The position numbers were made by a program, and so were the translations under genes. DNA of 64,000 bases, taken from assembly GCA_973895155.1 (NCBI GenBank), contig OZ316895.1, positions 7,056,184 to 7,120,183 on the forward strand, in the 5' to 3' direction. The notes under the pieces were generated by a model that ran no database searches, had not been told where the DNA came from, and saw only the letters and a list, made by a program, of their open reading frames with translations. Below, one piece after another: positions 4,454 through 48,300 of the stretch. Every line of letters begins with the position of its first letter. Position 1 is the first letter of the stretch. The DNA is from Marsupella aquatica (Eukaryota; Plantae; Marchantiophyta).

Positions 4454-5870
4454 TCACAATGTGGAAGCTAGCAGATTGGCAACCAATGTGGACTCCGCGT
4501 GCTTCAGCGAATCAACCAATCCACGAGTACCGCAGAAGTTGGCCAGGCTTTGCCACAGAAGAGCCCGGGGGTTCCGTTTCACGTCATCAAAATTTCCAAA
4601 AACACAGAGGAACCGCTTCACTCTTGTCAGCATCACACAAGCTCTGTGCCGGTCTGCGGCAAATAGAGAGAAGTGTTTCCCTGCCACGAGAGAAATCAAG
4701 ACAATGTCACTTTGCTGTCCCTGAAACGAGTCCACGTTGTGAACCGTCACCCTCTCATTCAAGTTCTCTGTTACCAGGAGTTTAGAGATGCATCTGTTCT
4801 GCTCCTCGTACAGCGTTAGAACGACGATATCGTTTCCCGTCTGGCACTTGGTGAGTTTCTGGCATACTTGCAGAATGGCTTGGGCTTCCGCTGTATTGTA
4901 TATGGACGTCTTTCCCTGGTCTTTGGTGGGCACGCCGTGAATGTTGACCCAGAGTAATGGGTGATGCCAATCTCTTTCGTTCCGTCGTGTCGGGGAGGTC
5001 TGTAGCTCGTTCTGATAGATCTCAGCTGAGATGAAGCTGCAGATCGTCGGTGGCATCCGGTACTGCTCCCTGAGGAGCTTGACCTCACAGCCATTGGACA
5101 CCAGGTCGAAAATGCTCGGCACTTTGATGGATCTGGAGGCTTTGCCAGAGCCTGAGAACGGGGGCAATTGGTAAGGATCTCCCAGTACTGTGAGCAGTGA
5201 GAGGTCTGGAAGACAAGTGAGAGGGTATACACAGTCTCCCTCAGCAGCTTGGGAGCATTCATCGATAACCATGGCCGTAACGTTTCCTCCCATCAAGCTT
5301 CTCGTGAAAGCCGGAGAGCCCACTAAGCCAAGGGTGCACACAAGTATTGGTACTGTGCCTCTCTTATTCTTAGTCCGCCAATCTTCGAGAGCTCCGGGGA
5401 GCTCACATCTTGCTTTGGTAACGACAATTGACTTGGCCAGCTTCTCGTAGAATGTTTCGTGCCAATCTACGAAGTAGTCTTCGCTCACTAACAACAACAC
5501 CCCGGGAACTTGCTCCTCGGTCAATGCTTCTGCTAAGTTCCTGGCGGCTACGTTTTGGTAGGCAGTACATAGAAGTACCTCCCGCTCGCCTCGCGCATGA
5601 AGCCACGCTTTTGCGACTGCTGTAATCAAACGTGTCTTTCCTGCACAGCAAGCATTAATGAAGGTTAGAAAGGTACCAGTTCTCCAGATTCCATTCCAAG
5701 CGGGATTCCAAGGCGAGCAACAATTTTATGAATGAGAATGCCAACGGATATGATCATGAGCTGACCTGTTCCTGGTGGCCCTATTGTAGCTGAAAGAGGA
5801 GACGTCAGGATCTGGAGCACTGCCTCTCGCTGGCTAACATTTAAGGAAGCAAAGACATCTTCAAAGTATT
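4454..5870 (-). other. Domain: SF1 Upf1/DNA2/NAM7-like helicase (AAA_11/AAA_12 type) at the C-terminus of the giant gene
   Basis: LNVSQREAV (Q motif), GPPGTGKT split by an intron, AYQNVAA, DECSQ, GDPYQLPP, LREQYRM, NTAEA, VDSFQGQQSDIVLISLV, VMLTRVK. Confidence 0.95.
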
Positions 5871-8800
5871 CCGATGTTAGCCGTGAAGCTTCTCTGGGAA
5901 ACGCTGAGTGCTCTTGTTTCGTCGGAATCTGTGCTTTTCCATTCTGTGGTTTCTTAAACGTGTTCGTCTTTGTACATTGAGACGCTGCAAGTTCTGGTTT
6001 CCTCAGAATTTCTTCTTTCCCAAGCTGTGCCTTCTCAGACGAGCTTGCCGTCGTACATTTCGGCACATGACGTTCTGAGTTCTCCGTAATCTTTGCTTTC
6101 CAACATTGCTGTGGGTTGTTAGCAATGCTTGCCGTTGGACAGTTAGGGGCTGAATGCTCTGGTTTCTTTGGAATGTTTGATCTCACACGTAGCTGGTTCT
6201 GCCAAGTAATTTCTGTCCCACATTTGAGTGCAAGAGAGAGAAGGCGAGGGCATCTTTGTGGATGGCAAAGTAGATCGTAGAACGCATCCCGAAGACGTCG
6301 AAATTGGGGGTTGCGGCTCTTACTGTTGTCCACAATCACATTGCTGATGGAATTGATGTCGATCGGCAATGCCGGTGTCTTTAATGATGAGGACCGATCG
6401 CTCAAAGGAGATAACACCACTGATTTCCCCGTGCGAGTCTGGGCTTGAAAAAATGCGGGTTTCTGACCATCGTTGAAGCGGAGTTCAACTCGCGAGCCTA
6501 CGCTCGTTACTCGTGACCGGAAGTCGCGCTGGAGGAGCCGCAGAGTGCTTCGAGAGCTCTCACTGATGCTTGCTGACGTCTGCAACACAAAATTACAGAT
6601 GATGCACACAGATGGGACTCCAATCATCACTGTGCCCTGTAAATCAATCTGCAAGAAACAGAAGGGGAACGAGAAGAAATGGCGTACCTCAAATACGGTC
6701 TTTTCTGTGCGCTGCAAGATGCCGTAATTTGATATTGCCCTAGCAAACAACTTCAGCACTTCCTCCGGGAGCTTTTCGAGACATGTCACAGGTATATCAA
6801 CTGCTGCAGGTCCTTCGAGCGCAATCATGCGAGAAGCCCAGGCATCCAAGGCTGCATATTTAATCTGCAAGTTCCGTTTAGTACATCAACGTACAATTCT
6901 TAGAAACACCAAAAATTGATGACGATCCGTTGATTAATTTTACTTCAATGCACCCTATGTACTGCAGACTCTGGCGGTTGACCTTCAGCTGAGCACTTTA
7001 TATTACACCGACATCTAGGCCTGCTTTGGTGAACAATGCTTTGGTGAAAGTGGGAAATTGGGCCCATGTCTGTACCTGTTCCAAAGTCAAGGTTGCACAG
7101 CTCCAGTCACTTGTGGTAATGGATTTCTTCTTTGTCCACTCCCAGCCATAGAGAGTCCTGCGGCCATATCAAACAGGACATCTGGTGTTATCACAAGTAG
7201 AGAACAGCTTTGGCGGGTAGCTTTTATTACGATCATGGCAGTGTAGCTAGCTCGCAAAATGATATCAATGGTTGATTGGAGGGGAGTACATGCATTGGGC
7301 ATCAACTTGGCTCGAACAACAAGAAAAGGTCAAAAATTAAGCCGAACCTGAAGATTCCCAGAATGCCTGCGGTTCGATTCGCAGTAGTGTACGCTGGTGA
7401 GACGTTCTTGAGACCGTTCACCATCAGGCCGAGAGTATGGTATATTGCAAGGGCGTCATTGTGGACCTCAGCTCCAGACTTCACTATTTTCTGGTCGCGT
7501 AAAACAGTGGCAAGTCTTGAAGGACAATGACAATTCAAAGTCTTACTTGTCAGATGAATCAAGACACACCGCTGGTGTGTTGAAACCTGAATGAGGTTGA
7601 GATCTCCGTTGAATCCATGCTCGCAATCTAATCCAAGCATACTGGTTGCGTCACTCTGCGGCAGCAACCAATCAATAGCAGCGTCCACGCCAACTGGATC
7701 ATTGATCTGGACCGTAAGTACCTCAACGGTAAATGTTTCCACAGATTGGGGAGTAACGTAGTCGTCAGGTGCCCGAGGCATTTTACTCATTACCTCCTTC
7801 GGTATTCTGATCTGGTAGTAAGTACTTGAACACCCTCCTTCTTTCCTTACTCTCACAACTTTTATCTGGTCTTCATCGGTAAAAGCTTCTTGGGCTGGGG
7901 CTTTGACAACATCAGAGACTTCTGGCGTTTTGTATTCAGGAAACTTACACTGAATGCTCTCGCGCACATCAAGACTAACATATTGCCAGAATTCTAAAGT
8001 GGATAACAATGGAAACTCCGTTGCGCAGGTGTTCTTCAAAAGATAATCATCAATGTCATCGTGTTCGGTCTTATTGACCTGACCCCACCAAGCTACACGA
8101 ACCTTGTAACCCCAGTCTCGAAGAAGACGAAATGTCTGGAAGTAGCAGCTTGTCACCTGTTATGACCAGCAAATATATCAAAACAGAAATCAAGTAGGAG
8201 ATGGGCAGAATTAAGAACTTAGGTGATAAAATCAATTTACCAAATGGGTATATGGACTAAGAAAAATGAGTTCCCAACATGTCTTTCTTGTGAATGACAT
8301 TGATGGATTGACAGAAGCAATGTTATGAGTCACAGGAACTGGTCATTCCGTGTTATATATTAGAGCCTTATCTGGGAGCAGAAGAAAGTTTTAAACTAAT
8401 GTTTTGAAGTACCTGGTCATTGCATTGTGAACCAGCATCAGGGAAAAAAATGATTTGCTCAACCTCCATCATGGCCAAATAGCACTGCAGTAGATTTTCT
8501 GATCGAGCGAAATCAGCTCCAGATGCGCCAATTACTGGCAATCCACTCAAACCTGCTAGGACATGAGCTTTGAGGCCACCTTCACAAAGACCAACTATGG
8601 ACAAGTCACTTTCTTGCGGAATACAGCAAAACAGGGGCAGTTCTCCTCCAATTTGAGGGCCCTTCCCACCCTTGAAAAGTTTATTACTGCTGAGCCAAAC
8701 GTACTTTCTTTTTCCTGTCAGATTGTCGTCAGCCTTTATTTGGCCTCCAGTGATTTGGCCAGATGGATCTCTTGCTGGGATGAAAATACCACGAGTCCCC

Positions 8801-11800
8801 ACCAAGCCGGTTCCTTTTCCATTCATACCAGGTATTAAGCTGCTTCCCATTATATCTCTGCCTCGAATTTTTCCTGGAATCCAGGACTGAAATTTGAAAT
8901 TATAGCATCGCTTTGCATCTAGTCCCCTTCGCTGTAATTCCTGTTTAGCACATAAACATAATGAAAAGTGATTAAAGCTTTCTGTAGAATCATGTTCTTC
9001 AGAATCATGTTCTTTGTCCGGTTAATATACGAATGGTGAAGATCAACATAGATTAAAAAGCAGCATATTTTTTTAGATATATAGACATTCAAATCCAAGA
9101 AAGGTTGACGTCAAGAAAAACTTAAGATTGACTACCATTTTGTGAGCATCGTTCAAATGTCCCAGCTTTTCTAGTATTGCTTGGTAGTGAAGATTCCGGA
9201 ACTGAGTTTCATCCACCCCATAGGTATCCAAAAGGGCAACTTCAAGGTCTCTCTTTCGTTCCATTGACGATGGCAACCTCAGCAGCAAGTTCAAGATTTT
9301 TGATCTACAATGCTCATCGATGTTCAGATTCATCATTTTGATGGTTTCAAGCAGCCAGAACACATTTTGCATGTGTATCTCCAAGTCCATGATCGAAAAC
9401 TTGTTTTCAATGGTCCAATCCAAGCATTTTCCTACAAAAAAAGTTGCTTTGGAACTACAAAAGCCAAGTAAATCGCGCACGAAACACCTCACTAAACTTG
9501 CAGTTGCGCCTAGCACCTCTTGATACATCACCACAGCATTTAAGAGCTTGAAAAATATGCTGATGTTCTCTCCATTAAATAGTCTCCTCAGGGCTGACAG
9601 GGTAGTCCATACCGAACTCTGCATGATTGAATCTATTAGCCGTAAAGAAGAGTAATGCGAGATTTCGTTGCAGAGATTCCCACGAGAAAAGAATGTGTCA
9701 AGTATATTCGACTGGTTCTCCAATATTAACTGCATGATGTAGGGCTGGAACACTGAATCCCAAGTCCAATCCACTGGTGAACAGCAGCATTTGAGAAGTG
9801 AAGCATATTCCAATGCATTCTCGGGCTCCAGCCTATCATATACAAGTAACCATCTTACGCGGCACTCCACCGTTTTTGACAGTGAGATATTCATCGACTG
9901 AATGATGCGAAGAAGAACCAACTGCAGTTTTGCAGCGAAATCAATCCCCTTTTTAAGGATTCGGCTGTCGCAATGACAGAGCAATTCTACGAAGTTACAT
10001 ATTTGCGTAGAGATCTGTTCCTGGTCACCCCCAACGACCTTACCTTTCCAAGGGACTAGGAGAAATTCCCGAGTCAGGATGTCTTTGATAAGACTTTCAT
10101 CGTGGTCAATTTTCCAGCTTAGTAACAGTGCCTCCATCACTCCCGTTGCTGTACTAGAAGGCCCTCTCAACGACAAGTGACAACACAAACTTTGTACTTG
10201 CTCCAGAATGCCATGAATCTTGCTCGTAAGGTCACTCAAGTGTATCGTAATTTCTGCTTGGCCAACCTCTGAGCGAGATCGAATTGCCTCAAACTCAACC
10301 TCATTTTTGGTACGAGAAACTCCCCCTCGGATTTGCGTCACATTTGCAAGGGTCACTTTCAAATCATCAAACCAAAAAATCTCGGAATCCTTCTCTCTTT
10401 GCACTTGTACTACATATGGTTCTGATGGAAACTCAAGCTTGGACCCTTTCCTGACAATCTTCTTTACAAATTCGTGAGCCTCCTCACTGCCATCATGGTC
10501 CTCTTCAGCTGCCTGCACAATCATTAACCCTCAGAGTGGAGATAGAATTTTTTTAATTACATCACATTCTTTGACTTGTCAGTGATTCCATACGTTAATC
10601 AAAGGCATGGCATTTAATTTTCTACTACTCAAACGAATGGCAACTTGGAAAGCTGGACATAGGTCCAATACAGGTTGACGAAAGCACTCACCTGCATAGA
10701 CAATCTTACATCTACTTGAGTAGCACCAGTATTGAGCCTGACAACATCGGCTACAGCAAGCCTAGTCTTCGACAACTCCACCAATTGTAAACGGAACCTC
10801 CCAGGAGCATCAATTGCATCTGTGATATTCAACTTTCCTACGCTATCCCTTTGGTCTCTGGCTGTTGGATTTGAGACTACGATTATAAAATTGTTTAGTC
10901 GTTCAACAGTTCTTGGATTACAGAGATGTAAACCTGCTCTCAAATAGTAGAAGTCTTTATCTGAGATTGTGTCGTCAAACCTTCGCTTAGATATTTGATG
11001 ACGATCGAGATACTTTCTCAACTCACCGAGAGGCTTAACCTGGCCATCACGAAATGGTAGACATGTCTCGAGAATAGTTGAACAACTAAAGACTACACGC
11101 CCCAGCCGTGCTTGCATCTGTACATTCCTACGTGGGCCCAGCGCTACCATTGCCTTGTCAAATGTTTCCTTCATTCTGGCATTGAAAAGTGAACTGGCAC
11201 CACAAGCATTTTTACTATCGAGAGATATTTCGCGAACGAGCACGAACTCTAAGGACTTGTACCCAACGGCACTTGATGAAATGTCCTGAAATCCTTGGAC
11301 ATGCACGCAGCGGATCTTTTCGTCCATATTTATCGACTCTATGTAGGTATCGTCAAAAATCCAGGGTGATGACTGTTGTTCTTTGTGGATCATTGTCTCA
11401 ATTCCCTGTAGAGCTTGTTCTACGTCCCTGGTCTTCCCAGAAACAGTGACAAGTCCAGGCCTCTGACTTGACGAGAAAGATCCAACTGAAATTCTTGCAG
11501 CAAAATGTTGATGCTGAAGTGCAGAGAGAATTGATTCTCTTTGTTGGCGTTTCACTATAACCTGTCTAGTGATGAATGAATCTCCACTAATCTCAGGGGT
11601 GAAGCTTCTTACCACCTTACACTGAACTTGATATTTTCGTGCCTGTAATTGCACTCTCTGAGCCGCCTCAGCTCCAAGAGTATTCGTAGGCATATTACCC
11701 TCCAGGTCAGGGTTGCAAATGGAGTGATACAATCCTTCCATCTCCTTTTTCTGCTTCCTATTGATTAGCTCGTCTTCCCTGGAATAAACGTACTGCAGCA

Positions 11801-14800
11801 CAACCTTCGTGTGCTCTGCGTGTCCAGCATTTTTCACAAGCCTCTGCAGTAGCTCAAAGAAAATCCCATTATGGGATTTGTTGCCTCTAATCCATTCAAT
11901 TAACTGTGCCTTGTCCACTTCGAGTTCTGCTGCCTCAAAGGACTTCTCGAAGATTGTCAGGTCTGATAACTTGGATGGATTTAGTTGTGCAGATTCCTTC
12001 ATATTTGCACTAGGAGGACTGTTACATTTATCATTCCTGGATTGTACCAATATGGGACATGACTGCCTGTCTTGAAGTGTTGAAGCAGACCCTGGTATCT
12101 GACCATGGTGGGGGCAAGAATTGGATTGGTTAAGGAATCCATCCTCTATAGTTTTGCCTTTCTTCATAGCTTGCTTCACAGGTGTAAGCGAGGGATATGC
12201 CAACCATAACCCAAGCTCCGGAGCCAGCAGCCGAGCGGCATATTCGGTTGCCTGTATATACTGATTAAGGTTCACCAGATCTCGGGCAAGGTTACAATTC
12301 CCGAATTCTGAGGCTCCTCCCACTAAGCCCTTGATTTTTGTTCGTAGACCATCAATGTACTTCAATACTGGCACGCAAATGAAACAAGGTGCTAGCTCCA
12401 AAGTTACTCCTTGGTATCTTATGGAGTAAATTCGATCACTATTGAAGAGCAAACGAACTTGAATCTCCCCGTCCCGGCCTGAAGGCCTGAACAATAACAG
12501 TATCAAGACAGAAAAAAGATGATCTTGTGGTAGTACCGTAACATTTGAGGCAAGTACCTCCGATGCGTTAGACGTATAGGGCATATTGACAGCGACTGCG
12601 ATGTGAAAGGAAACGTCCTTGCGAACTTCAACTGATCTGGAAATCAGGTTCAATCGATTGAACTGGACTCTACGGAGTTGAGTCCCGATCATTACTTTCC
12701 ATTGAATCCTTCGAGAATCTGAAGGGTGACCCACATAAATCTCCTCCATTACCTCTTTCTCTTTTCTATTGATGACAAGCTTTCCATTTCTAGAGAAGAA
12801 ATTTGCCATATAACTTGCCAATCGAGCCATGTCAGGCAGGTCTGAAATTACACGTGGAGAGGAGAGAGAAGTCAACTGTTCCTGTTGGAGTCCACATTGT
12901 ACCAGAACTGCTCGCTCAAAGGATGGTACGATCCTCTGAATGGGCCCCAAAACCTGCAAGTAGCCCAAACCATGATGACATTGTTTTAAGTGTTCTTTCT
13001 GCTGTACATAAGCAAATAGAATCTGCACCCGTCATTCACTGATCTGCTTGAGAGGCATAAGAAAATCTGCGATACGGAAACAACTAGTCGTCAATGATTT
13101 ATAAGCGGGATCAAATTATTGAACGGAGCTAGGGTCTCACCTTTAACGCCATTTCAAGCTTTAGAATGTCGGGTCCAGCTAAGTTAGGAGGTACATTGTT
13201 TAGCTTAAAGGAGACATGCGCAGGCATGTTTGATTTCTCTAGGTCTCGGATTTCAGCAACACCTTGTAAATTCTTGGCAGGGACACCTATGAACCAATTG
13301 TGTGAGAATCCTCCCGCTATTACCATCTGTACAACTGCTACGTTATCACAAAATTTTGGGATGGTTTGATGTCTTCGATATTTCTGATTCTTGTAGGGAT
13401 CAACGGCTGCTAGCGTCCTCAACTTGGCGAGCTCATCCTCCATGCCTTTACCAAATTCTCTGGTGACGAAGATAATTGTCTTTCGAGCATAATCTCTCAC
13501 CAAAAGAAGAAAACAGTGCAAACTCGACTGCCTCAACTCACTCCTGTAAATCCACTGCTTGCTCGCCAATTGGGACTGCATGCGTACCCACTCATGATAG
13601 ACCTGACAAAAGACCAATAAGTTACTGGCATATCCTCCTTGAAAGTGCAACCTTGCTCTCAAGTTTGCTATCCTTCGCTCTTGAAGTGACACTGGATCCA
13701 CAGAGCCGCGGTTATCCAGGAAAGGTTGGTTGAAAATATCAGCTTGTAAGCTTATGCCTGCTGCCATGATCACGCAATCCACCGAGCACCCGGCTGCGAC
13801 ACCCAGGAGCACAAACCGAGCCAAGTGAACGTCTGGTGAAAGCTCAACTGCGAGTCTGCCAAGCGGAGTAAGTTCGCAGGAATCTGACGAGCTAGTCTCG
13901 GTGATCGCTCCCAATATTTGCAGCTCTTGCATGGAAACCCTTACATCCTTGAGTTGAAGTGAATCCAACAGCTGTCGCAGAAGATCGACGACTGAAAAAT
14001 CGGGAAATCGACTTTGGAATAAACTTTTGACTCGCAGGATATTGGACCCCAAGTTTTGCAGTGCGATGTCTGGCTTCTCATGTGCAGGAAAATTATTGAA
14101 AGTCTCTCGAGTGTATAGCCGGATAACAAGGCCAGGGAAGAGCCTGCCAACCCTACCAGCTCGTTGGGTGGCAGAAGCTTTCGAGCACCACACTCTTGAT
14201 ATTTTGCCACCTGACGTCTGGCAATAATCTATTTGCATCTGATGACCCAGGTCCAATACCACTCGCACATTAGCGATCGTCAGGCTGCTCTCTGCAACAT
14301 TAGTGGCGATGATAACCTTCAAAGTACCTGGAAGTGATGGCGCAATTACAGTAGCTTGCTCCTCCCTGCTAAGCATCGAGTGGAGCAACATAACATCCAA
14401 TGGTGGAAGTCTTGCATCCCTAAACCTCGACACCCTCTCAAAACCTTGCTGTATCTCGGTGATGTCTGAGTAGGTCGCCACAAACACCAAAATACAATCA
14501 CCCGCCTGCCCAACGTGCATGATAAGACCTGTGATAAGATCGATTGCAAAATGGGGTAGGTTGGTGCCATCTAATGCTCTCACACCAGTTCCAGAGATCT
14601 CCAGGAACCTGGTACCGAGATCTGCCACTGTTTTGGGAAGATCTGGCAGATAACCCAGTATCTCGTCCATGTGGACAATCTCGACGGGAAATGTGCGGCC
14701 TCTGATGATAATTGGTTCGACGTTCTGATCTCGCGCGGTTTTCAGTAAACAACTGAAGTACTTCTGCAGTGGGCGAACTTCCATAGTGGCCGACATAATG

Positions 14801-16545
14801 ATCAGCTTGGTTGAGTGGAATGACTGCCATCCACTATTGTTTCCAATGCCACCCAGTAAAAGCTTCAAAAGAAGTAACAGGAAGTCCTGCTCCACGCTTC
14901 TGACGTGCACCTCGTCCAATATTAGATGTGTGATGTTGCCCGCTTTCTGATCCCGTGCCAGCCACTACCACGTACAGAAGCAAACCATATGAGCTTATTT
15001 AACCCAACGATGCAATGTTATCGAAGTCTAGCTGAATCACCATGGCGAACGCTCATACAAATCCAGAGTGAAGGTGAATTATGAATTAGCTTAGGATCCG
15101 ACATTTGATTCGTTGAAGCAATGACGGACATCAATTATTCAAAAAGGGAGGATGCCACAAATTAGAAATTGTCACTAAACATGCTTCAGAGTTCACGTAC
15201 AACTGATACAAATCACCCTCGCTGAATGATCTAATATTAATCAGACTTCAAAACAAATCTGTTTGAGAGCCTCAATTATAATCCTAAATAATTATCGCAG
15301 TTGAATCTCGCCGTTAATCAACTGATGTACGAAGCGATGGTGTCAATCTGGAGGAAAGTAAACTCGATATATCAGATCGACATATGTGAACTGTGAAAGT
15401 GGTCTGGAAAAGTTTGGAGGTCATCTGATATTAGACTGAGTGACGACCGACGACCATATGCTAGCAGAAAGCTTCTATCCAGTCTTCAACTGTTGGCACA
15501 TCATGATTTGAGCAGTTTATAAGTCTGCCAGTTGTGCAACTGCAGCAACTAGTTCGTTTTTTCTTTGCAAGACGACTGATAGCTTCCATCGACTCGAATC
15601 AGCTGCAAACATTGTATAATGAACGATCTGAAACAGAGCCGTCTTCCCCGCCTTTTTCACATAAACTTCGGAAACAAGTCTGTTGCATGGGTAGAAGTTT
15701 TCCGAAGACTTTCTGGGACATACTTCCAGAAGATAGCCGATTGTGACGAAGATGAGTCGAGTCTTCCCAAACGTAGAAGCTCGCTCGTGTGCCACAGCAA
15801 AACCCACATCTATTCCAACTCGTTCCCCCCTTGAGTGGGCTACATACTGTGCTAATGCAACAGCTGCAACTCGTCTCGGTTGTGCAACTATGACGCTTAC
15901 GCTGTTACGTCGTCCTCGAGCAGTTGCATCGTCCAGAATGAACTGTGGAACAGCAGTGCTCTTACCGCAACCTGTTTCCCCCTGCCAGGTCACAATTCAA
16001 AGTTACTCTCCTCTGCAAAATTAATGTCGCCATCCTTAACTGTTCAGATAGGATCCCTATAGAGAAGAATGATCGGAAATCAATAAATTCGTATCTGAGA
16101 GTGCAGATCGGTATTGTGAGGCTGGAAGTCAAAGTATAGTAGCTATCTCAGATGACGCTAGATACGTTTGAGCCCAACACCAAATCTATATAGTTTAATC
16201 CACTAGTCAGATTGCGCAATTGAGTTGTGGTTTCGCCAAACCCACCTGAATAAATGTGATACGGTGATCTGAAATGTGTTGCAGTATGTGTTCTCGATGA
16301 GCTAAGATAAGACTCTGAGTACGGCGATCTGAAATGTGTTGCAATTTGTGTTCTCGATGAGCTACGATATACCTCTGAGAAGTACTGCTATATTTCCGAC
16401 CTCCAGAGGGTGTTGGGTGGCTGCCAATTATTATATCCGGCCTGCGTAGGATGCCTTCCGCTGAGCTGTAGACGATGCCGTGCGCTGGCCTTTGACCATT
16501 ACTGCCTCCGCGGCGTCCCCGTGTCGTGTTCTTTATTTGCTCCAT
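4454..16545 (-). CDS. Giant multidomain nucleic-acid enzyme, ~3205 aa, 11 exons: DEAH helicase + HA2 + KH-like + CYTH-like + Toprim + DEDDy exonuclease + Upf1-like SF1 helicase
   Basis: Exons on the minus strand: 16545-16246, 15981-15724, 14964-13141, 12953-10692, 10512-9136, 8940-8413, 8156-7348, 7157-7076, 6864-6688, 6579-5766, 5640-4454. All introns are GT..AG. The total is 9618 nt, in frame, with no internal stop. Junctions rebuild conserved motifs: TFIQ|GETGCGKST, HKM|ELQRRGL, NDQ|VTSCY, TLEQ|IKYAALD, GPPGTG|KT. Confidence 0.88.
6830..7720 (-). other. Domain: DEDDy 3'-5' exonuclease (WRN/EXD2/Mut-7-like)
   Basis: ExoI LGLDCEH; LIQVST; VLRDQKIVKSGAEVHND (ExoII); SDW...LTLEQ|IKYAALDAWAS (ExoIII YxxxD). 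The last part depends on the 82-nt exon 7157-7076, which the ORF track does not show. Confidence 0.9.
8040..9200 (-). other. Domain: Toprim/primase-like, resembling the N-terminal region of cyanobacterial plasmid Rep (CyRepA1/DUF3854-type) proteins
   Basis: RNLHYQAILEKL..L...HK-ELQRRGL; IPGMNGKG..L...GIFIPARDPSGQITGGQIK; KYVWLSS; GELPL; GLCEGGLKA (Toprim Glu); PVIGASG; FFPDAG; VAWWGQ..K..DDIDDYL. Confidence 0.75.
13480..16320 (-). other. Domain: SF2 DEAH/RHA-type RNA helicase core plus HA2 (N-terminal part of the giant gene)
   Basis: Motifs I GETGCGKST, Ia QPRRVAA, Ib TIGYLL, II DEVH, III MSAT, V ATNVAESSLTI and VI QRAGRVGR; HA2-type LQILGAI...LTPLGRLAVEL. Confidence 0.95.
16261..16380 (-). 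repeat. In-frame 60-bp tandem duplication in exon 1 of the giant gene
   Basis: Lines 16261-16320 and 16321-16380 are near-identical; they encode VAHREHKLQHISDRR and LAHREHILQHISDHR. Confidence 0.9.
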
Positions 16546-31299: not shown

Positions 31300-32478
31300 C
31301 TCACTCCCTTCCCTTTCCGTCGCGTCCCTTTCTTCGGAAGCCCTCGCCTCGCGTGCGGACTCTCTCTCTCTATCTCTCTCGCTTGGTTTGTTGGGTTGGT
31401 GGTGGTGTCCATAGCCCTCTCTCTGCGCTACTCTTCTCCGTCGTGATCGAAGCAATCTTCCTTATTGAAGACGTGTTGGGCGTGAATTGCCTCTCTGCCC
31501 CACTCCTTCGAACAACGTTGGTGTGGCTTTTGAGCGCGGGTCTCGGTTGACGACCACGACGACGAGCACTGCGCTGGTTTCGTCTTCCGAGGTGGTGCGG
31601 GGAGTGCGCGTAGACTCGACGATTTGTCGATCGATCACGGGCTTGTTGTGTTGCTGTGCAGGACGACGAACGCAGTCGCGGCGGTGGAGGGACAGGAAAG
31701 AAAAGAGTTCTTTTGATGCGCACGTGGAAGGAGGGCTGAAAAGGTTTCTTTTCGCGGAAGTTTGGTGTGCTGCAGACGCCGAAGGTTGCACGGCGGTGTG
31801 AATGGTGGAGACGGATGGGGAGGGAAAGGGAGGAGGGGCGGAGTGGGGAGCGACCGGGAGATGAGAGCTACAGGGGGGCTGTGTTGTGGAGAAGATGCAG
31901 AGGAGATGGTGGTGACGATGGTACTTTTGTGTTGTGTTGAATAGGTTTTGGGTAGTGCGCTGAAGGACAAGCAGCGGTCAAGAGGCGGGGCCAGGAGGAG
32001 GGGGTTCTTTTGAGTACTTCACCCGGAAGAAGCCGATGATCGAGAAAGAGGCGAGTGGAGAACAGAGTTTAAGGGAGGGAAGAGTGGATATTGTAGGGTT
32101 TCAGCATACAGGAGCATGGCGGTGAAGAGATGATGCGAGGCGGGGAGTTTTTTGGGCAGGATAGGAATGAACCAGTCTTGGTTGGTGTGGAGAAAGGGGG
32201 CACGGCATGGTAGATGTTGGTTTTAGTGAAAGGTTGTGGGAAGGCAAGCTACTAAGAGGGTTCGTGACTTGCCATCGCGGGACGAGAAGTGTGTCGTGGT
32301 TTTATTGCTGATTTAGAAGTGGACCGCACCTGGATTTCGGTTCAAGCTCTTTGGATTGACGTATCGCCGGATCGTAGTGATGTTTCCTTGGTTTGACGAT
32401 TGCTCGAGTGGGGTTTGTGGTCCGACCGCCGCTAGGAAGTGAAGGAGTGGCAGACTCCTTGGACTCTGGTGAGGCGAA

Positions 32479-35400
32479 ATGATCTCTGTGAAGAGACTCG
32501 CCGACGCCAGCGGGAAGCAGTTCTATTCGGTAGAATCTCGTCTGCCGGACGGGACTCTTCAGTGCGTAACCAGATCACATAAGTTTAAGTGCAACACCCG
32601 AGGCTTCGAAGATAAGGATACTCGGTCAAGGGCTCTTAGATTCGCCATCACTACGGACACATTACCTGCTTTTCGAGCGTTTGTATTCAGCGAAGTGGCG
32701 GATGGGCCTGCGACCGGGAGGAACGAGGGATCAAGGCCAGTGTCAGGATCGAACGCGCATCCGCCTGTAGGCTCGTCTCAGGATGGTGTGACGCGGAGGA
32801 TCAGGTCTTATGTGTGTCTGCGGCAGAATCGATTAACAGGATTACGGTTCGTGGTGGCTATGTCTCGGCTCGACTGCGGGCGTTTGCGAGCGATTTCGTT
32901 CCAGGACCATAGCTTAGTCGGGACAGGTAATTCGGAGGAGGCCTTGAACAAGGCGGTGCGGTTTCTGCGGGGCGTGGCCTTTGAGAGTTGGCGGAAGCAA
33001 ACGATGAATGAGTTGACGAGCAGGGATCGAGAAGGGGTCGGCAACAGGAGGGAGCGAGCGTTGAAGCACGTAAGTGCCTTCGTCGAGATAGAAGCTGGAG
33101 AAAAGGTAGACTGTGCGTGTGGCAAAAACCGCAGTCGGGGCCTGATGGTGGCGTGTGAGCGGTGCGGGGCTTGGGAACACGCGGAATGCCAGGGCTTCCG
33201 TTCCGACAAGCAGGTGTTATTCCTACCCCGGTGCCTCGTTACTGATTGTTATCTTCTTCGCTACTTTTGCCGGCGACCCCTGTGTCGGATATTATAACGG
33301 TGCCGGATGTCTGGCGGATCCTTGATGAGCATCGGTACGAGCATGGCAAGAGCTTGCCGAGGCGGCCATGCTCTTGCTCGATGTGGTTATTTTACCGCCG
33401 CAATTACTAATCCGGCATGTTGTTTCTCTACCGCGCAGATGTTTTGTCGAGTCGGATTGCTATGTTGACATCATGATCTTGCAGGAAGAGAATTGTCGTG
33501 TCATTGTTTCAACCTCGCATCCATCCATACTTGAAAAACGCTTTTGTTTGTCATCATCAGCGTTTTAAGCGAGTAAAAAAGGGTCTTGTGCGGATGATGA
33601 AAGATTGCATGCAGAGCTTATTGAGGGTAGAACGTACGTGGATGGCAAAGAGTTGTTCGTTGGTGTTTAAGTGGCAGGGGTATGCTGATTCTGCTTCTGC
33701 ACCGTCCGCCTCAGGAGTTTTGACGCTTGGTCACAAACGACTTGCGATAGTTAGACAGGATCTGAAGGATATTTCTCGGAACGGAAAGGATCGGAAGGAA
33801 CGCTTGTTTGGATTAAAAGCGCAGGTGTCTTGGGTTGGTTGGTTGTTTGGGCGAAATGGATAAAGCAGCAAGGATGAGAGGAGTACAGATTAAAAGCAGA
33901 TGATGAGGTTGTGAAGTGTGTGGGTGGGTTGCTGATGAAAGGCATGGCATGCAAGCTCAAACGTTTGTGTTTCTATCTTGCAGATACCTGCGGAGTACAT
34001 ATGCTCGGCATGTATGAGGGCGGAAAGGGAGGATGTGGTTGTCATCAGGTTGGAGGAACAGGTTAGTCTCAGGAATCTACGACAGCTTCAGACTTGAAGC
34101 GCGGTCTTGTTTAAACAGGGAATTACTGGAATCAATCTCAAAGGATTACAGGGACAGGATATGATGCCATACCTATGGTCTGCTATGGACTCTTAAAGTA
34201 GAAGAGCTTGTTTTCCACAAAGGAGCTGGATAAATGAAGGATTACATACTAGAGTTGTAAACAATGACGAGGTGGAGAAAGGAGTGTCCCTATTTTGTCT
34301 TTTGCTTGGCTTTAGAACAGGGAAAATGTCAGACTGAGGATATGATGCAGAAATGGATTACTGCTTTGGGCCTTTAAGGCAGGGAAGCTCTAGCCGTCGT
34401 TTGTAACCTATCCGTCCTCAGCCACCTCTTGGTCTAGGCTGCAGCGACAGATACTGTATGGTGCCATCCTACTGGCTTGGAGTCAAAAGGAGTTGCATAG
34501 ACCTTTATAAGGAAGAAAACCCGGCAGCCTCAAGGTAATGGCCTCCAGATGCAGTCACTGGCGGGCTATTATCTGCTTGTGGCAAAAGCTTCGTAGCTAA
34601 TGTGAGTGCAAGCAGTAGTAGGGTTCGAGGATGCTATGCTCGCAGCTGTCAAGACTAGTTCTGAGTGTTTTTCTGGTCTTCTTGTGCTCAGGGAGAATGC
34701 GGAAACTTGCAACTAGAAGATCTCTGGACAGATGCCAAAATACGAGACAGGGAAGCAGACGATGGTGTATGCTGTGTTTGTGGGTGCGAAGACAATCAAG
34801 ACTTCGAGAACATGGTATGGCCTGCTATAGAGAAGCTGTAACCCGCAAGTCAGGAGTGACAAGGCCATGCTCTTACTTCCATTTGGGGATGCATTTTGTC
34901 AAACTTTAGTATTTATACTCAGTAGTGTATCCGTTACTCAGGTTTGACTTGTGATGTGATGGTACAGATCCCCCCTGTTAACGAGCATGAATGTGATGGG
35001 GGTACCGCGTTGGCACATCCAAGTTGTATATCAGCTGCACACCAGATGTCTCACAAAGCTTGGAATGGGAAAGCAACGGCAGCTGGCATGTGTCAATTAT
35101 GTGGGGATCGGTTTATGAAATCTCCCAGGGCAAACGAAGAGGTTTATTCCCATACGAGCTCCGGAGTTTCGCAGGCTAAACCAAAGAAAGGTTCCCTTTC
35201 TCCAAATCAATCTCACACTCGAAATTCAAGAAGAGCTGGTAAAGTGGATCAGTCAGTAAGAGGAGCAAAGAGATTGCGGAGCGCTTTGACTAATGGAGGT
35301 GTTGTTCCGAAACAAGATGTCGTAGACAAGCGCCCTGCAAAGAGTGTAAAGGAGGAGGACTGTGAGGTTCAGGCAACTCAAAGTGGCGAGAAGACGGATT

Positions 35401-38400
35401 TGACCTCACCGGAGGCTGGCAAGGTGTGTTTGACTTTTTATGTGTACATTTGTGAAATTGCTGGCGATGGAGGTCATTCGATTGTGATTTTTGAGTTCAT
35501 GGGAGCAGGTAGTTGTTGGGTCTGTACTTCCTGTTACTCAGAAGCTTGGGAACAGTGGGCAGGGAACAATATGTAGATTGTTTACATACGTCCGAAGGAC
35601 ACAGATACGAATGATAATGCTGCGAAGTCGTTCTAAATCAGAAGCTTTGCAAATCTGTTGCAGTAAAGATGCGATTCGTCAAAGTAAATATTAACATCGT
35701 TTTGACTGTTTCCTGTACAACAGGTGGGGACGATTCTTCCGGATCGGCGATCTTTCAGTGATGCCGCCGTCACCGTCCCAATCAAGAAAAGGAGACTGAT
35801 GATGGAAGTAGTTCGTTCCCCTTCACCACCTCCACGATCTCCTTCCCCTTCACCTCAGGTGGATACAATAGTTCCGAAGAGTGAGCTTGGGGAGCGGAAA
35901 GATTTGAATAATGTTGGAACTGAAGCGGTGCAGGGGTTAGAAGATGCAGAAATGGTGGAAGTTGGGTCCGTGGAACACGTGTTAGGAGATCCAAGTGTTG
36001 TGAGTCCATTTTCTAGAACGGGGCCTTCGGAACCGGTAGACAAGCGGTCTGTTGTCGAAGAGGCGCCGTTAGGGAAGTCTCCACCGGTGGGCAGCAAGTT
36101 TGAAGATGGAAGTGATGTGTCTGAAACTCAAGGGTCACTGGAAGCTGATGTACCTGAGAAGAACCATGCTTCTGTTGCAGCAGTTGTTGAAAGCAACAGG
36201 CAGGAGAATCACGCAGCTCATTCGGTCACCACAAATGACGATCTAGAAACTCAGGAATGTTTGAGGACTAAAACCTCAGCAGATGGGGTCGCGCACAACA
36301 ATGTAAAGGATGAAACATCCAATAAATCTGGACAACGTGGTCAACAAGGAGAGGCCAATGACTTAGGTGATACGGAAAACAAGGATGCCCCTGCGTCATC
36401 GAGTGCTAGTCAGAGTCGCTCACGGGATGTCAGACTGCATTGGGATTTGAACATGGACATGGAAGAGTGGGAAAGGCCACCTGAAGAGGACACAGGAACA
36501 TTTACAGGTGTGCAGCACGGCCAAGTGTCAAGTGCGAGTCCGGTGAATGATGTTGATGCTGCAGATGATCACAAAGCAAGCCCTGTTGCACAGAATGACT
36601 CCCTGCTTTCAGAGCAGGTTGAAGCGCAAGAAGTAATTGAGGATGTGCAAGCATTAAACGATAAGCGTGATGCCATCATGGAGGATCCTCAAGTCGAAGT
36701 GGAAGGGGAGGCTGAAGCTGAAGCTGACGCTGACGCTGACGCTGAAGGGGATGCTTCTTCAAACGATGCTGGAAGTGTTGAAAGCAAACACCGCGTGCAG
36801 ACGAAAGAGCTGAATTCTGTGACCAAAGAATCCTCCATTGAAGAATATTCTGACACACTTGAAGCTGAACATGTTGATTACGATGATTCCGAGTCTAGAC
36901 AAGGAGACGAACTTCAATCTGATGCGGAAGAACTAGTAGAAAGTGAATTGCGAGAAAACGCTGAGCCAGGTTTTCCAGGTGAAACATATGAAGCAAAAGA
37001 GGGTGATGTAGAAATGAACCATGGGCGTGGTGACAAAGTTACTGGACAAGGCGAGGGCGTCCCAACGGTTAGTGGAGATGTTAGTGCAGCGATTGCGGTT
37101 GAAGGGGTCGAAACTAGGTGTCCTAATACTGATTCTGAGTCTGGTAGGGTGAAGAACGTAGTTTTTCCGGAGTCGGACCCCGAGCTTAAAGAGTCTCATG
37201 GTGAGAAAGAGCTAGAGATCCAAGAGGAGCCGGAGGAGATACAAGAAGGCCAAGAGATACAAGAGGGGCTGCAGATACAGGAGGGGCTGGAGGTACAAGA
37301 GGGGATAGAGATACAAGAGGGAATAGAGGTGCGGGAGGGGATAGAGATACAAGAGAGAAAAGATAATCTCCCCGGCGCGGCAGCTGAAGGACTGTCACGT
37401 GAAAGGGTTGAAAGTGTTGTTACGAGGGAGGAGAAACGGGTGGACGAGGAGAAAGATGCTTCGACTCCAGGCTCATCTGCCAGACGAGTAGATGGCCAAT
37501 CCCGGCCCAAATCATCTGGTTGGGACCAGCTCCCGGAGGGATTTGACAAAGCAGAAGATGCATTGCGCGCAGCCAAAGAAAGCCCTGCTGGACGTAGTAG
37601 AGGGTCTGCTTGGGGAGCTGTGAATGGGAGGGGAAGTGCGAGTATCAGCCCTCGAGGTGGTCCTGCCACTACCCGATTTGGAAGGGGAATTCGTGCTGAG
37701 GGTGCTGGGGACAGGGCGAGATCTGAAGACTCCTGGCCAAGAGAGGATCATCAGCGGGTACAGAGGTTAGTACTGATCTTGAACTGCCTGTAGCAATGAA
37801 CTGTCCCGCTTCATCCCAGATTGCGTGCCTGCTTGGATGTGGCAACATTTGAGCAGCAAGTAAAGTCCGCTATCTTTTGTATTGTCGTATTGGTAGTCCA
37901 CCAGCAAATGGTTTTCTGAAGTATTTTAATGTTAGTAATTTAGTTTTGTGCTAGCATGGGTGTTTTAATCTTGGTCTTGGAGGTAATTTCATGACTTCTG
38001 AAGTAGTGGAATAGGCCAATGAAGCATGCGTTGATGTTGATCAATCATTTGTGGTGATTGACAGAGTCGATGAAAGTGTCGACATTAGCCCCAGAATTGC
38101 GTCGCCTCGGGAGCTTGGCCGTGGCAGGAGTCACGGAAGGGGAGGTTCTCCTGCAGTTCGTGGAAGGGGTCGAATGGAACCTTGGATGGACAGTCCCAGT
38201 GGTCCATCAAGTCCATGGGGGGGTCCAAATCGTCACCCCTCTCCACCTGGACATTTTGCAGATGGATTTGGACCCCGTGGTCCCACGAATGCCGCTACCA
38301 GGGCCCTTTTAAAGGTTGAAAGCAGTGGATTTGTAGTAGCACCAGACGGCACGCTTACCAAGGCTGGTGGCAGCTCAGGTCGAGGTCCTCCGCGGCCTTT

Positions 38401-39694
38401 TCAAAGTGGGGGTCGTAATGGTAGGGGAATACCCTTTAACATGGGAAGAGGAGGGCCAGGGATGAATATAGGTATGGGAATTAATCTAGGTGGAATGCGG
38501 GGTAACATGGGTATGGGAAGAGGAATGGGGGTGGGCCCTGGAATGGGTATGAATATGGGCATAAGCATGGGGATGGGGATGGGCGTTGGCCCTGGTGTAG
38601 GTATTGGCATGCCTGGACGCGGTGGACCTGGAGGTAGAGGAATGGACCGGTACAGTGGTCCGTATGGGGGTCGTGGTTCAGCTGGAGGCCCAGGGCTGGA
38701 ACACTCATCTTCCAGCAGGAGAGGCAGATCTTACGAGGACTACGGTGAAAGCTGGTCGAGGAGAGAGGATCGTAGCGCTTCTCCTAGGAAGCGGAGAAGT
38801 ACGTCAAGGAGATCACGCTCTGGCAGTCCATCAAGGTCTAAGTCTCGTACGAGATCTCCCAAAGCAAGAACACCACCCCGGCCAGCTAATAGTGGTGGTA
38901 GTGGTGGTGTCGTCGTCGGCAAGAGCAGTAAGAAACGTAGTCATTCTCCCGCCGTTCATAAATTTGAGGCAAGGGGGGAAAGAGCTGACTCATCGCCTGC
39001 ACGGCGTTCAGTCCCAGCACCACCAAAACTCCCTTTACCTCCGCCTCCGCCGCGAAGTCAGCGATCACCTCCAGCTGGGTTGAGACGCTTGAATGACAGC
39101 AAGAGAGACGGAGATAGAGCTCGATCCAGGGACAGAGAAAGAGAACGAGAGCGTGAAAGAGAAAGGGAAAGACCACCCACAACAAGGGCCCGCACTCCAC
39201 CGAGAAGAACGTCCCCCCATGTGGTGCATGGTTCAGCTTTGATGGATGAAAGAGATAGACAATTATTGGCCGGAATCAGGCATGTTTCACCTTTAAATGC
39301 GAGGAACAGGTCTTCTGAGAATCCAGGAACAGGTACTGTCACGTCTAGTCGAGATTCACCACCCCTTGTAAGTCCTGTTGGGCGCGTTGCTGAGGGAAGC
39401 ACTGAGGCGAGGAGACAATCAGGGGATGAAGGTGCGGATAGCAGAACGCATGGGTTTAAAAGGGAAGACATGGGGAGTAAAGCAGAGCAGAGAAGCAGCA
39501 AGGAGACCTCCCGGAGTGACCGTGAGCGCAACGCAAGGAGAGATGGTGGAAGAGACAGAGATGAGGAGAGGAGAGACGTTAGCAAGTCGAGCTACAGCAG
39601 TAGAGACAGGGATGGTAGGTCCAGCAGCAGCTTGAGGTACAACAGGGAAGGCGATGATGATGTTGCTCCTCGACGCAGGCGACCTTCTCCTTGA
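32479..39694 (+). CDS. PHD-finger protein joined to a long low-complexity region (PIKKRR, WDLN, KVESSGFVVAPDGT motifs; At5g13590-like), ~1687 aa, 6 exons
   Basis: join(32479..33213,33984..34061,34692..34814,34968..35423,35724..37765,38065..39694) = 5064 nt in frame, all GT-AG. PHD1 is CACG..MVACERCGAWEHAECQ..|IPAEYICSAC. A second Zn finger reads CCVC..C..HPSC..CQLC. Then a basic NLS-like PIKKRR, an EAR-like DLN, an acidic tract, an RGG/GM-rich tract and an RS/RE tail. Confidence 0.8.
37208..37356 (+). repeat. Coding 18-bp tandem repeat (hexapeptide xEIQEG, ~8 copies)
   Basis: LEIQEE PEEIQEG QEIQEG LQIQEG LEVQEG IEIQEG IEVREG IEIQER; gagatacaagag recurs. Confidence 0.85.
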
Positions 39695-45317: not shown

Positions 45318-48300
45318 CTACTCATCAATTATACCTTCCATGTAAATTTTGAGAGTTTTCAAAACATTCTTAGGAATTGTCAAACCTCTATCCATAATAT
45401 TTTGTTCTTTAGCACCTGACTTAAACCCATACATTGCAGAATTTGCAAACTGCCAACTTTGAGACTTAACATTGTCAAACCCAGGATCCAGCTCCCAAGT
45501 CTTAGTGGTTTGAAAGCAATGTTCATATTGAACATCATCCTTTGGATCATGCTTACCATGTTTAGGCCTCCACCATTGTACTTGGAACATAGGAGCATTC
45601 CTAAGAGGAATGCTCTCAACAGACGTTGAAGAAGACCCTTCAATATGTTGCAAATCTATTGAGGGAACCTCATGGTTTGGATCCACACCACCCAAAGCTC
45701 GAATCAACCAGAAACGCCCTTTGCCATTTTCATGTTCCCATTCATCCTTTGGACGTAAAAATACAAAGTGACCTTCTTGAATATCTTGTAGAGGAATCCA
45801 ACGTGCAGGTTCTCGCTCTTGTCGTGCACCAACAAAGGGTGCAGCTTGATCTTCCATCTCTTCCATGTACTCATTTTGAAGGTCCATCATCTCTGGATTT
45901 TGAGAAGGTTCACTTGATGGCTGAGATGTCCCCAAAATCATCTTGTAACCTGTGCCATGGTTAGTCTTTGGCCAAAAATCAGTTGTCAATGGCAATTGTC
46001 TTTCCCCCTCCCCTTCTATTGTAAGTTCCTCGGACATTGCTTGCACAAGATTCTCCCAATATTTGACCAGAGGAAATCTCTCTTTATATGCTGCAGAGGT
46101 CTCATCCTTACAACTTTTCTTCAAGAAATCAATATAGCGATTAAGGAATGGGATGATTTCTCCAACCTTCTTTTGTACATCCCCAGATATAGGTTTTGCA
46201 AATGGTTGGCCTTCCGGTAAAATGAGCGCATTTGTGATGGGATCAGTTCTCCAAATGGACCTCCCCATTGCCGGAAGCCAAGGTTGCTTGACATGTGCTT
46301 TATATTGATACACTGGCACATTATCCCTCATGGAGAAAAAAATGCCACTGGTCTTGAGTGACCTTCTATCTCTTTCACCTGGAAAGTTTTCAAATACTCC
46401 TTGTAAGATGCAACCTCTTGAATCAATCGTGGTACAGGATGAATGCTTTCACACTCCCAAACCTCAGCGATCAACCCCAAGAGGGTAGCAACCTCTTTGT
46501 ATCTGACCTGTTTGGATACTTGAGAAAATAATGCATCCGCGTCTTCATGGGTGTGGCCAACCATGAGGAATGACATTTGCACAGTTTCAAACACCCCCTG
46601 CTAACAAGCTCAGTGCAAAATGTCATCACATATTGATTTTTGTTATCTTTCCCTGAATTGTTCATCTGCAACGTTAGGTGCCTTGGTAAGGGCTTGAAAG
46701 AGCCCCTAGTAGTCTCAGGATCATCCTTAGAACCAACATCCACTGTGTTTGACTTTTTAGTCTCTTGACCATCTTCAATGCCTTGAAATCGAACAATTGA
46801 AACATTTTGGGTTCCAAGTAACCGGCCAGAAATGCTTCAAAGTCTAGAAGGGGCTGAAATATTGGCCTAGTTGCATTCCAATTCAATCCCTCAAGAAGGT
46901 CTCCAGTTTTGTCTCCTGTGTAATCTTCCAAATCTCGGAGGCATTTGGCCAAAGATATCACGGTAAAGTCTGCATCTCCAGGCCAAAGTCCAGTCAAACT
47001 GAAATGTGCATACACTCCAAGATCTCTTCCATGGGTTAACATCCCAGTAAGAGCAATAGGCAAAGGCTGACCACTACCAGAGAGGGATTTTGGAGTGGGG
47101 ACCAACATGGGGATCCAAGTCTTGGCTTGATCCATCTTATCGTGAATAATGCAAAGATAGTTTTGAGGATCCTTCTTTGCAAGAACCCTATGAGCAAAGT
47201 AAACATATCTTCTTGACATTTGTTCACGAAGATGTCGCGCTTTTTTCTCTTCAATCTCTGCACGCTCTTTTTTTCTCTTCTCCCGCATCAATTGATCTTT
47301 GAACTCAGTGCAAAATGTGCACTTGGCAAATGCACTTCCCTTGTGAAAGTCAAAATTATCAAATGAGTTTTTCCAGATGTTGTACATAGTAACTTCAGTA
47401 ACCTTAGCAAACCCATCTAATTCCATCTTGGTAAACACCTCTTGGAAAATCTCCTTCTTAGTAAAACAAGATGGGAGCCGATATTCAATAGTGTCAGTGC
47501 CGTTGGACCCACCATAGGGAAGATGTGGCATTGGTTCCCCATTTTGGATTAAAATGGACTCCAACAAGGCGCGAGCGTGCAAAGTGCTTGATCGTGTCTT
47601 CCGTTGTCCCTGATTTCCATGGAAACCAATTGTGCAGCCTGCTTCGTATTGATTTTTGTAGTCATAGTACTTTGTTGTACTGAACCCATGCATTTTAATA
47701 AATGCATCTTTACAAACCACACGTCCCTTTAGAACAAAAAATCCCTTTCTCTTGACTTGCTCCTCTCTACACCCAAAGAGACTAAAGATGTGACTTGTTT
47801 TGTTGTCACTTGATATTCCATGGTATTCCCTCCTCATTGCCTCTAAGTCCTCCCTGGGCATGTTCAAGCAACACTTCAGCTTGCAACAACCTTCTCTTTG
47901 GATGGAATCAATGGACTCCTCGGTAATTTTCAAAAGTGCCCTCGACTCCAAATGCCTTTTCTTCTTCTCCTCAAGATCAACTTTTGTCCTCCTAATGAAA
48001 TTGTATGGTCTTTTTGTAGGTTTACCATCACCATCCGAATCCAGATCGCCCTTAGTTCGACCCGACTCCATCCACTTCTCTAAAACTTCCTCAAGGATAT
48101 CCCCAAGAAACCTTTGAGATGAAATCAATAGAAGGGATTTGATTTCCCACCTCACCAAGCCAGGGGTACCAACACAGATATTTGGAAATAATCTGGGTTC
48201 ATTGATATTCACAACAGCAACACCAACATGATCTGCACCAAGAAGTTCATCGTCAATGGCACCTGTTTCAAATGGGACCGTGATAACATCTGTTGCAACC

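Follow-up and report, generated by a model that had tools for sequence, protein, structure and literature searches.

A plasmid-type DnaG primase core within a predicted giant RNA-processing protein of the liverwort Marsupella aquatica

Gene model and domain order

A 64,000-nucleotide stretch of contig OZ316895.1 of the liverwort Marsupella aquatica (positions 7,056,184 to 7,120,183; hereafter, the window) was found to carry a predicted gene for a 3,228-residue protein that contains a DnaG-type primase catalytic core related to proteins of cyanobacterial plasmids. The protein is predicted to consist, in order, of a DEAH/RHA helicase, a weak KH match, a triphosphatase-like region, a helical region, the primase core, a DEDD exonuclease, and an Upf1/Sen1-like helicase (Table 1). 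All ten introns have GT-AG ends with the reading frame unbroken, and the model is collinear with P0175 of the liverwort Calypogeia fissa (3,343 residues) and with fern proteins; the start codon is its least certain point. In exon 1, a short tandem duplication (16370-16250, minus strand; two copies of AHREH.LQHISD) was observed immediately upstream of helicase motif I.

An earlier interpretation of this DNA from its letters (the sequence-only reading) had proposed a Toprim domain like that of cyanobacterial plasmid Rep proteins, split by two introns. The motifs on which it was based (YQAILEKLGHLNDAHK followed by ELQRRGL, then FIPARD, GGQIK, KYVWLSS, GELPL, CEGGLK, IGASG, FPDAG, VAWWGQ, and DDIDD) are present on the minus strand where it had placed them, and the domain extends slightly beyond its noted end at 8040. 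Both introns (introns 5 and 6) were also borne out. The spliced domain scored 237.9 bits over positions 7-260 of a profile of 50 intron-less prokaryote-type proteins, and the match was continuous across the junctions, the exon pieces joining on this prokaryote-only profile at positions 26/28 (intron 5) and 198/200 (intron 6). In a control with 200 shuffled sequences, 98 were reported, with a top score of 0.4 bits. Introns 5 and 6 contain stops in all three frames and have GC contents of 30% and 35%, respectively, compared with 44-52% in the exons, and separately annotated Calypogeia proteins are collinear through both junctions. Sequence and homology together suggest that both introns are spliced. 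Four contig-type sequence runs covering 7950-9260 showed no joint that skips an intron, a result uninformative on expression. A second sampled population differed at 15 of 451 intron bases and 13 of 860 exon bases (Fisher p=0.043); the exonic part contained six synonymous and six non-synonymous codon changes, none of them at catalytic residues.

The view that the domain is integrated in the plant genome was upheld, and contamination was rejected on the basis of the introns, a gene-spanning contig of 21 kb (X1), and orthologs on plant contigs of 15.9 Mb and 147 Mb. Contig X1 is near-identical to the window and may itself be the source of this DNA. In X2 and X4, many long joints and loose ends terminate in GATC; they were set aside as likely ligation products.

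The flanking domains were assigned from profile and structure matches. The DEAH region matched the Pfam families Helicase_C, HA2_N, and, weakly, DEAD, and its nearest solved relatives were DHX29 (1e-36) and Spindle-E (7e-32). The superfamily 1B (SF1B) helicase matched AAA_12 (2e-39) and AAA_11, with Sen1, Upf1, and ZNFX1 as solved relatives. The exonuclease assignment is based on PF01612 in the Calypogeia orthologs (E about 1e-9) and on EXD2 for exon 7 (E 0.0086). For the KH-like region, Foldseek returned KH matches with a best E of 0.04 from a low-confidence model, the predicted model of the KH/triphosphatase region being poor (pLDDT, the predicted local distance difference test score, of 43). 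The triphosphatase-like region had no Pfam match; in the ESM Atlas, its features scored 0.93 against clusters of which 23% of the members carry PF02940, and 0.89 against plant DUF7903, with a low recognition score. Its resemblance to mRNA 5′-triphosphatases of giant viruses and to plant DUF7903, a term not found in open-access papers, is a lead only. For the first triphosphatase-like motif, the window has Q-M-Q-A-R-L-G and two fern proteins have E-I-Q-A-[KR]-L-G, which makes triphosphatase activity doubtful.

Table 1. Predicted features of the 3,228-residue protein gene and their positions in the window
Feature	Position	Strand	Details
Whole gene model	4454-16545	minus	11 exons; 3,228 residues; no internal stops
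Exons 1-11	16545-16246, 15981-15724, 14964-13141, 13022-10692, 10512-9136, 8940-8413, 8156-7348, 7157-7076, 6864-6688, 6579-5766, 5640-4454	minus	
DEAH/RHA RNA helicase and HA2 region	13141-16263	minus	GETGCGKS, DEVH, SAT, QRAGRVGR
KH-like RNA-binding domain, putative	11379-11573	minus	about residues 1278-1342; Pfam KH_PARP14_8 below cut-off, E 2.7e-4
Possible triphosphate-tunnel (mRNA 5′-triphosphatase-like) region	10250-11250	minus	about residues 1385-1660; split by intron 4
DnaG-type primase catalytic core, PDAG clade	7965-9201	minus	residues 2009-2270
Intron 5	8941-9135	minus	195 bp; GT-AG; phase 0; in first helical part of primase core
Intron 6	8157-8412	minus	256 bp; GT-AG; phase 0; directly 3′ of PDAGSQCNDQ codons
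DEDD 3′-5′ exonuclease, EXD2/Egalitarian type	6790-7754	minus	D2383, E2385, D2510
Upf1/Sen1-like SF1B helicase	4454-5865	minus	GPPGTGKT, DECSQ, QYRM

The primase core and its plasmid relatives

The fold was examined with an AlphaFold2 model of the P0175 domain (80% identical to the window core; pLDDT 93.8). In agreement with the proposed Toprim fold, this model matched the whole core of the bacterial DnaG RNA-polymerase domain, with a best Z of 17.1 (root-mean-square deviation, rmsd, 4.1; 253 residues aligned). The DnaG structures 5guj, 4edg, and 1dde gave Z 15.6-17.1 and rmsd 3.7-4.3 over 244-253 residues and share the catalytic Glu with the core. Twinkle and T7 gp4 gave Z 10.9-13.1, and non-primase Toprims (topoisomerase and RecR) Z of at most 8.8 over 98-142 residues. 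Because the whole DnaG fold was aligned, compared with at most 142 residues for other Toprims, the model indicates that the domain is a primase catalytic core including the N-terminal subdomain, and not a bare Toprim.

By sequence, the core is neither Twinkle nor DnaG, as had been claimed. No match to Twinkle was obtained, identity to DnaG was 12-16%, and a search of PDB sequences with the domain profile gave no matches. Unlike bacterial DnaG, the core has no zinc-binding or helicase-binding domain, and D-x-G replaces DxD. Twinkle, in a eukaryote, and T7 gp4 share the DnaG-type primase fold, but the window core lacks their DnaB-type (SF4) helicase and is followed by an exonuclease and an SF1 helicase.

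The key residues of the core are R2035, K2109-Y2110, E2150-x3-K2154, D2198-A-G, and D2240-I-D2242. Where covered, R2035, K2109, Y2110, E2150, K2154, D2198, D2240, and D2242 were unchanged across the 13 eukaryote-like rows of the alignment, and the set comprising R, K-Y, E, the Lys of EGxxK, D, N, and D-x-D was invariant in six of six plant rows and, at each site they cover, in all seven other eukaryote-like rows. In what we take to be the correspondence to the catalytic residues of Escherichia coli DnaG, the Glu and the first Asp are retained, the second Asp of DxD is Gly, and D-I-D provides an extra Asp. No CxxC motif of a zinc ribbon was present within 130 residues upstream of the core in the window and four plant proteins; such a motif lies upstream in 110 of 125 prokaryote-type rows.

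These motifs delimit the group to which the core belongs. D-x-G was found in 48 of 50 prokaryotic PDAG rows and 12 of 13 eukaryote-like rows, and D-I-D in 49 of 50 and 13 of 13, respectively; the outgroup rows had D-x-D (15/15) and G-I-D (13/15). Calypogeia P0001 reads D-A-A where others read D-A-G. The window domain scored 238 bits on the PDAG profile versus 134 on the outgroup profile and formed one clade with the PDAG proteins (support 100/100; 400 of 400 bootstrap trees), with support of 99 in a 78-row tree. Judged from these sequences, the window core is a member of a nameless PDAG clade on cyanobacterial plasmids, sister to the CyRepA1/DUF3854 type, and shared descent with this clade appears firm.

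Prokaryotic PDAG copies are N-terminal in plasmid proteins. The expectation that the best non-plant relatives would be cyanobacterial plasmid proteins proved correct: among the 60 listed plasmid records that matched (63 in all), 59 were cyanobacterial and one was from Geobacillus, and a GTDB scan with patterns taken from one plant and two prokaryote-type rows gave eight loci, all from cyanobacterial lineages. Most prokaryotic rows were termed cyanobacterial-type based on their grouping with named plasmid proteins, with P0009, and with P0180; one cluster member is labelled Parcubacteria. Plasmid proteins annotated as "CyRepA1 family" or hypothetical (e.g., WP_015180029.1 and QDL18956.1) are 37-38% identical over exon 6 and have the same D-x-G and D-I-D. 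In contrast to them, the liverwort core has neither zinc ribbon nor Rep helicase, lies inside a large eukaryotic protein, and is interrupted by two introns.

The label CyRepA1/DUF3854 given in the sequence-only reading did not hold. DUF3854 (PF12965; Pfam cut-off, 23 bits) did not match window exon 6 or any of five plant proteins scanned, P0001, P0005, P0006, and P0175 among them. Slr7037, the experimentally tested CyRepA1 (PMC9978351, PMC10079941), is required for pSYSA replication (PMC9978351). It scored 169.7 bits on DUF3854 and 4.5 bits on the PDAG profile, and its primase-like region gave no BLAST match to the plant domain. Its Toprim primase-like domain is related, yet of the DxD and GIDD type (CFDND and KGIDD), unlike the D-A-G and D-I-D-D of the window. 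Eight outgroup rows matched DUF3854, the DUF3854-bearing proteins being the outgroup of the clade. The CyRepA1 model NF042913 matched only residues 546-1143, the half with the helicase/origin-binding region, of a Crinalium plasmid protein, and nothing in exon 6 or P0001; some PDAG plasmid proteins carry the CyRepA1 label because this model matches their helicase half. In the scans made, neither Pfam nor NCBIfam offered a model specific to the PDAG clade.

Three plasmid-side observations were made. P0009, a Prochloraceae protein, has two PDAG primase cores in tandem, separated by a CHC2 zinc finger and followed by an origin-binding helicase. In Nostoc sp. C052, isolated from the liverwort Blasia pusilla, the domain is encoded on a plasmid (H16; NZ_CP040280.1); its identity of 33% does not exceed that of other plasmids. 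Another PDAG protein (L017) comes from a genome bin that bears the label Candidatus Sericytochromatia, a group related to cyanobacteria but not photosynthetic; this occurrence may be real or a binning error.

Occurrence in eukaryotes and phylogeny

The nearest relatives of the window domain were three C. fissa proteins (P0001, P0005, and P0175; 79-80% identity in exon 6), and the matching domain order was found in C. fissa and the ferns Ceratopteris richardii, Adiantum capillus-veneris, and A. nelumboides. The three Calypogeia copies lie on contigs each of 15,851,540 bp and probably form one cluster; in P0175, the beginning of the DEAH domain is present twice, and P0001 opens with Lys/Ser-rich repeats. 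Three word-indexed searches and a full HMMER scan (679 matches, only two reaching 1e-30; best 150 inspected) revealed the domain in no plants beyond the liverworts Marsupella and Calypogeia and the ferns Ceratopteris and Adiantum; the third of the word-indexed searches, limited to proteins of 782-2,230 residues, added no eukaryotes. The domain is likely absent from other plants.

Between liverwort and fern, identity was 57-58% in the primase core, 47% in the SF1 helicase, 34-37% in the exonuclease, 27-33% in the DEAH core, and 19-31% in the middle domains, with 19-21% in the helical region. The primase core is thus the best-conserved region of the protein. In the liverworts, the DEAH motifs and the acidic residues of the exonuclease are intact. 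The fern proteins (P0155, P0176, and P0177) have lost DEVH, QRAGRVGR, and the D-x-E and last Asp of the exonuclease, and retain every primase residue and the SF1 helicase motifs. In ferns, the DEAH helicase and DEDD exonuclease are apparently dead, and the primase core and SF1 helicase of the same proteins are intact.

Among the best 150 of the 679 HMMER matches, eight were eukaryote-like, two of them from plants. P0152 is from the heterolobosean amoeba Willaertia magna. P0039 and P0191, a member of its cluster, closely resemble the EukProt protein P0002, in which the core follows double-stranded RNA-binding domains (dsrm and Dicer_dimer). P0132 (L003, 8033-10906, plus strand) is encoded by an intron-less gene in which a weak SPRY and an AAA_33 P-loop domain, a pairing also found in hnRNP U, precede the primase core; the same contig has PPR and RRM genes. 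P0011, P0022 (via its cluster member P0170), and P0037 group with P0132 at 100/98 and are putatively eukaryotic by this grouping. RNA-type partner domains therefore occur in three eukaryote groups, namely the plants, the P0002 group, and the P0132 group. The domain is thus not specific to plants; its occurrence in other eukaryotes and its setting in an RNA-enzyme fusion shared with ferns had escaped the sequence-only reading. For a giant-virus route, IMG/VR scans with exon 6 and P0132 gave nothing, and a degenerate IMG/VR scan gave five loci, all Rep-like with upstream CxxC; no phage records matched exon 6, all of these scans being insensitive. Fern plastid DUF3854-like open reading frames, considered as another route, match DUF3854/P4-type proteins (PMC6220310).

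The tree was built from 52 rows and 268 columns; 26 rows of the 78-row set were left out, and three short fragments had been dropped earlier. P0152 sits on a long branch, and the composition of three amoebal rows is unusual. The plant clade was supported at 100/99, and the plants joined the P0132 group in 353 of 400 bootstrap trees (87/45). The nearest group to the plant copies is probably another eukaryote, and the capture therefore need not have been into a plant. Transfer very probably ran from prokaryote to eukaryote, since prokaryotic diversity is far greater and the outgroup is prokaryote-type.

It is somewhat doubtful that an early land plant received the domain directly from a cyanobacterial plasmid, in an event separate from the origin of the copies in other eukaryotes. 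The top non-plant match is the cyanobacterial-type protein P0007 (E 1.7e-29), and the Blasia-derived Nostoc plasmid has the domain. In approximately unbiased (AU) tests (LG+F+G4, short searches, 5,000 replicates), placing the plants with either cyanobacterial subclade was not rejected (p=0.10 and 0.19), nor was one eukaryotic origin (p=0.27). Nesting of the plants among cyanobacteria, as the sequence-only reading had expected, was recovered in 106 of 400 bootstrap trees; one quick tree nested them there and two others placed them outside. Against a direct transfer, the plants joined the P0132 group in most bootstrap trees, as given above, and cyanobacteria alone in none. The sole arrangement rejected, marginally, was plants with their best cyanobacterial hits (AU p=0.043). 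A Cys after GELPLF is common to nine of nine eukaryote rows, which also argues against an independent transfer.

Elsewhere in the window, long AT-rich open frames were observed at 45318-49043 (minus strand) and 53103-57594 (plus strand), which we take to resemble transposon genes or their cargo; their only Pfam matches were a NIF-type phosphatase (56541-57275; E 4.5e-14) and a weak DNA methylase (54349-55668; E 0.012). At 32473-39694 (plus strand), one or more plant-like genes show a weak match to a PHD finger; their long exons are acidic and rich in Arg/Ser/Gly.

Proposed role of the core

In DnaG, the zinc domain selects the DNA start site, and the N-terminal subdomain and acidic patch bind nucleoside triphosphate (NTP) and metal. 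The retention of the NTP- and metal-binding parts, the loss of the zinc ribbon, and the RNA-type neighbours in three eukaryote groups point to nucleotide addition on RNA. We propose that replication proteins of cyanobacterial-type plasmids are the likely source of the core, through an ancient capture, and that it now sits, without its zinc ribbon, inside a predicted giant RNA-processing protein. There it would add nucleotides to RNA, as short copies or 3′ tails, rather than prime DNA replication, with a role in RNA surveillance or silencing. E2150, D2198, D2240, and D2242 quite likely form a working metal site in which D2240 replaces the lost second Asp of DxD, and the substrate is probably RNA fed by the 5′-3′ Upf1-like helicase. 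Transfer is marginally the likelier chemistry as against cleavage, and RNA nucleotidyl transfer as a whole is our best, still tentative, explanation.

Several points weigh against this proposal. All eukaryotes formed one clade in only 101 of 400 bootstrap trees, and the cyanobacterial-type rows in 185; the AU tests reject neither nesting among cyanobacteria nor a sister position. The within-species codon changes (6 vs 6) give no clear selection signal. The second Asp of DxD is missing, with D2240 proposed as its substitute, and a core without the zinc ribbon would not be expected to prime de novo in the normal way. No measured activity of any PDAG-clade protein was found, and the tested CyRepA1 is of the DxD type; the residues could therefore serve binding only. 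Archaeal DnaG offers a precedent for a primase entering RNA metabolism, but there it is a subunit that binds RNA, and the exosome does the tailing (PMC4227792).

Cleavage is the first alternative. RNase M5 and OLD-family enzymes are metal-dependent Toprim nucleases, and the core could be a nuclease of this kind, the effector of an antiviral or RNA-decay machine fed by helicases. The fusion to two helicases and an exonuclease, the altered DxD, and the absent zinc ribbon agree with this, as do the three Calypogeia copies, since defence genes often expand. However, the N-terminal subdomain specific to primases is present, and its R and K-Y residues are invariant; stand-alone Toprim nucleases are not known to have it. 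Further, the PADLOC models matched the two helicases alone. We consider a nuclease unlikely.

A non-catalytic RNA-binding module is quite unlikely. Its model would be the DnaG found with the archaeal exosome, a Toprim protein of primase descent for which such a role in RNA metabolism has been proposed (PMC4227792), and DxD is changed to D-A-G, or D-A-A in P0001. That system belongs to another lineage with other partners, and its tailing is done by the exosome. The acidic residues of the core are invariant in plants, amoebae, and the third group while neighbouring fern enzymes decayed, and in the plasmid clade D-x-G is ancestral rather than a product of decay. A DNA-templated primase laying RNA primers behind the 5′-3′ SF1 helicase, in DNA repair, at R-loops, or in organelle DNA replication, would suit the intact DnaG core fold, the presence of Sen1 and DNA2 among solved relatives of the helicase, and the replication proteins on plasmids, but is improbable given the absent zinc ribbon, the RNA-type partner domains in all three eukaryote groups, and the occurrence in only four plant genera, unlike core replication genes.

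RNA-silencing helicases and exonucleases (Spindle-E/TDRD9, the ZNFX1/Upf1 family, and EXD2/Egalitarian) are among the nearest solved relatives of the domains flanking the proposed nucleotidyl transferase. In animals, however, these are separate proteins, and DHX29 and Sen1 score higher, so that orthology is unsupported. We know of no animal silencing helicase or exonuclease with a primase core. More broadly, a new class of eukaryotic RNA-synthesising or tailing enzymes on the DnaG fold can be envisaged, although we regard it as rather unlikely. A plasmid core, domesticated a single time, would have lost its zinc finger and been joined to different RNA-recognition partners in the plants, the amoebae, and a further group of protists. 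The liverwort and fern version would serve as effector in an RNA-defence machine that combines it with two helicases in one chain, and ferns would have kept it active after their DEAH helicase and exonuclease decayed.

The DnaG fold and domesticated mobile-element enzymes were known already; what seems to be undescribed is this clade, along with its occurrence in eukaryotes and the fusion. No account of the domain in plants or protists was found in the open-access literature, supplements excluded, and PMC3710099 deals with other Toprim fusions. Automated transfer screens would overlook the domain because it makes up only 8% of a mostly eukaryotic protein, and current Pfam and NCBIfam models missed the PDAG clade of cyanobacterial plasmid primases in our scans. 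To our knowledge, the one DnaG-type primase of eukaryotes has been organellar Twinkle. The core described here would be a second, of plasmid type and nuclear-encoded, apparently kept since the liverwort-fern split or moved between the two lineages, and it is the most conserved module of an unannotated RNA-enzyme fusion of about 3,000 residues. Because unrelated eukaryotes have repeatedly joined it to RNA-binding domains, it can be tested directly whether a DnaG core may act in RNA surveillance as an RNA polymerase, a tailing enzyme, or an RNase.

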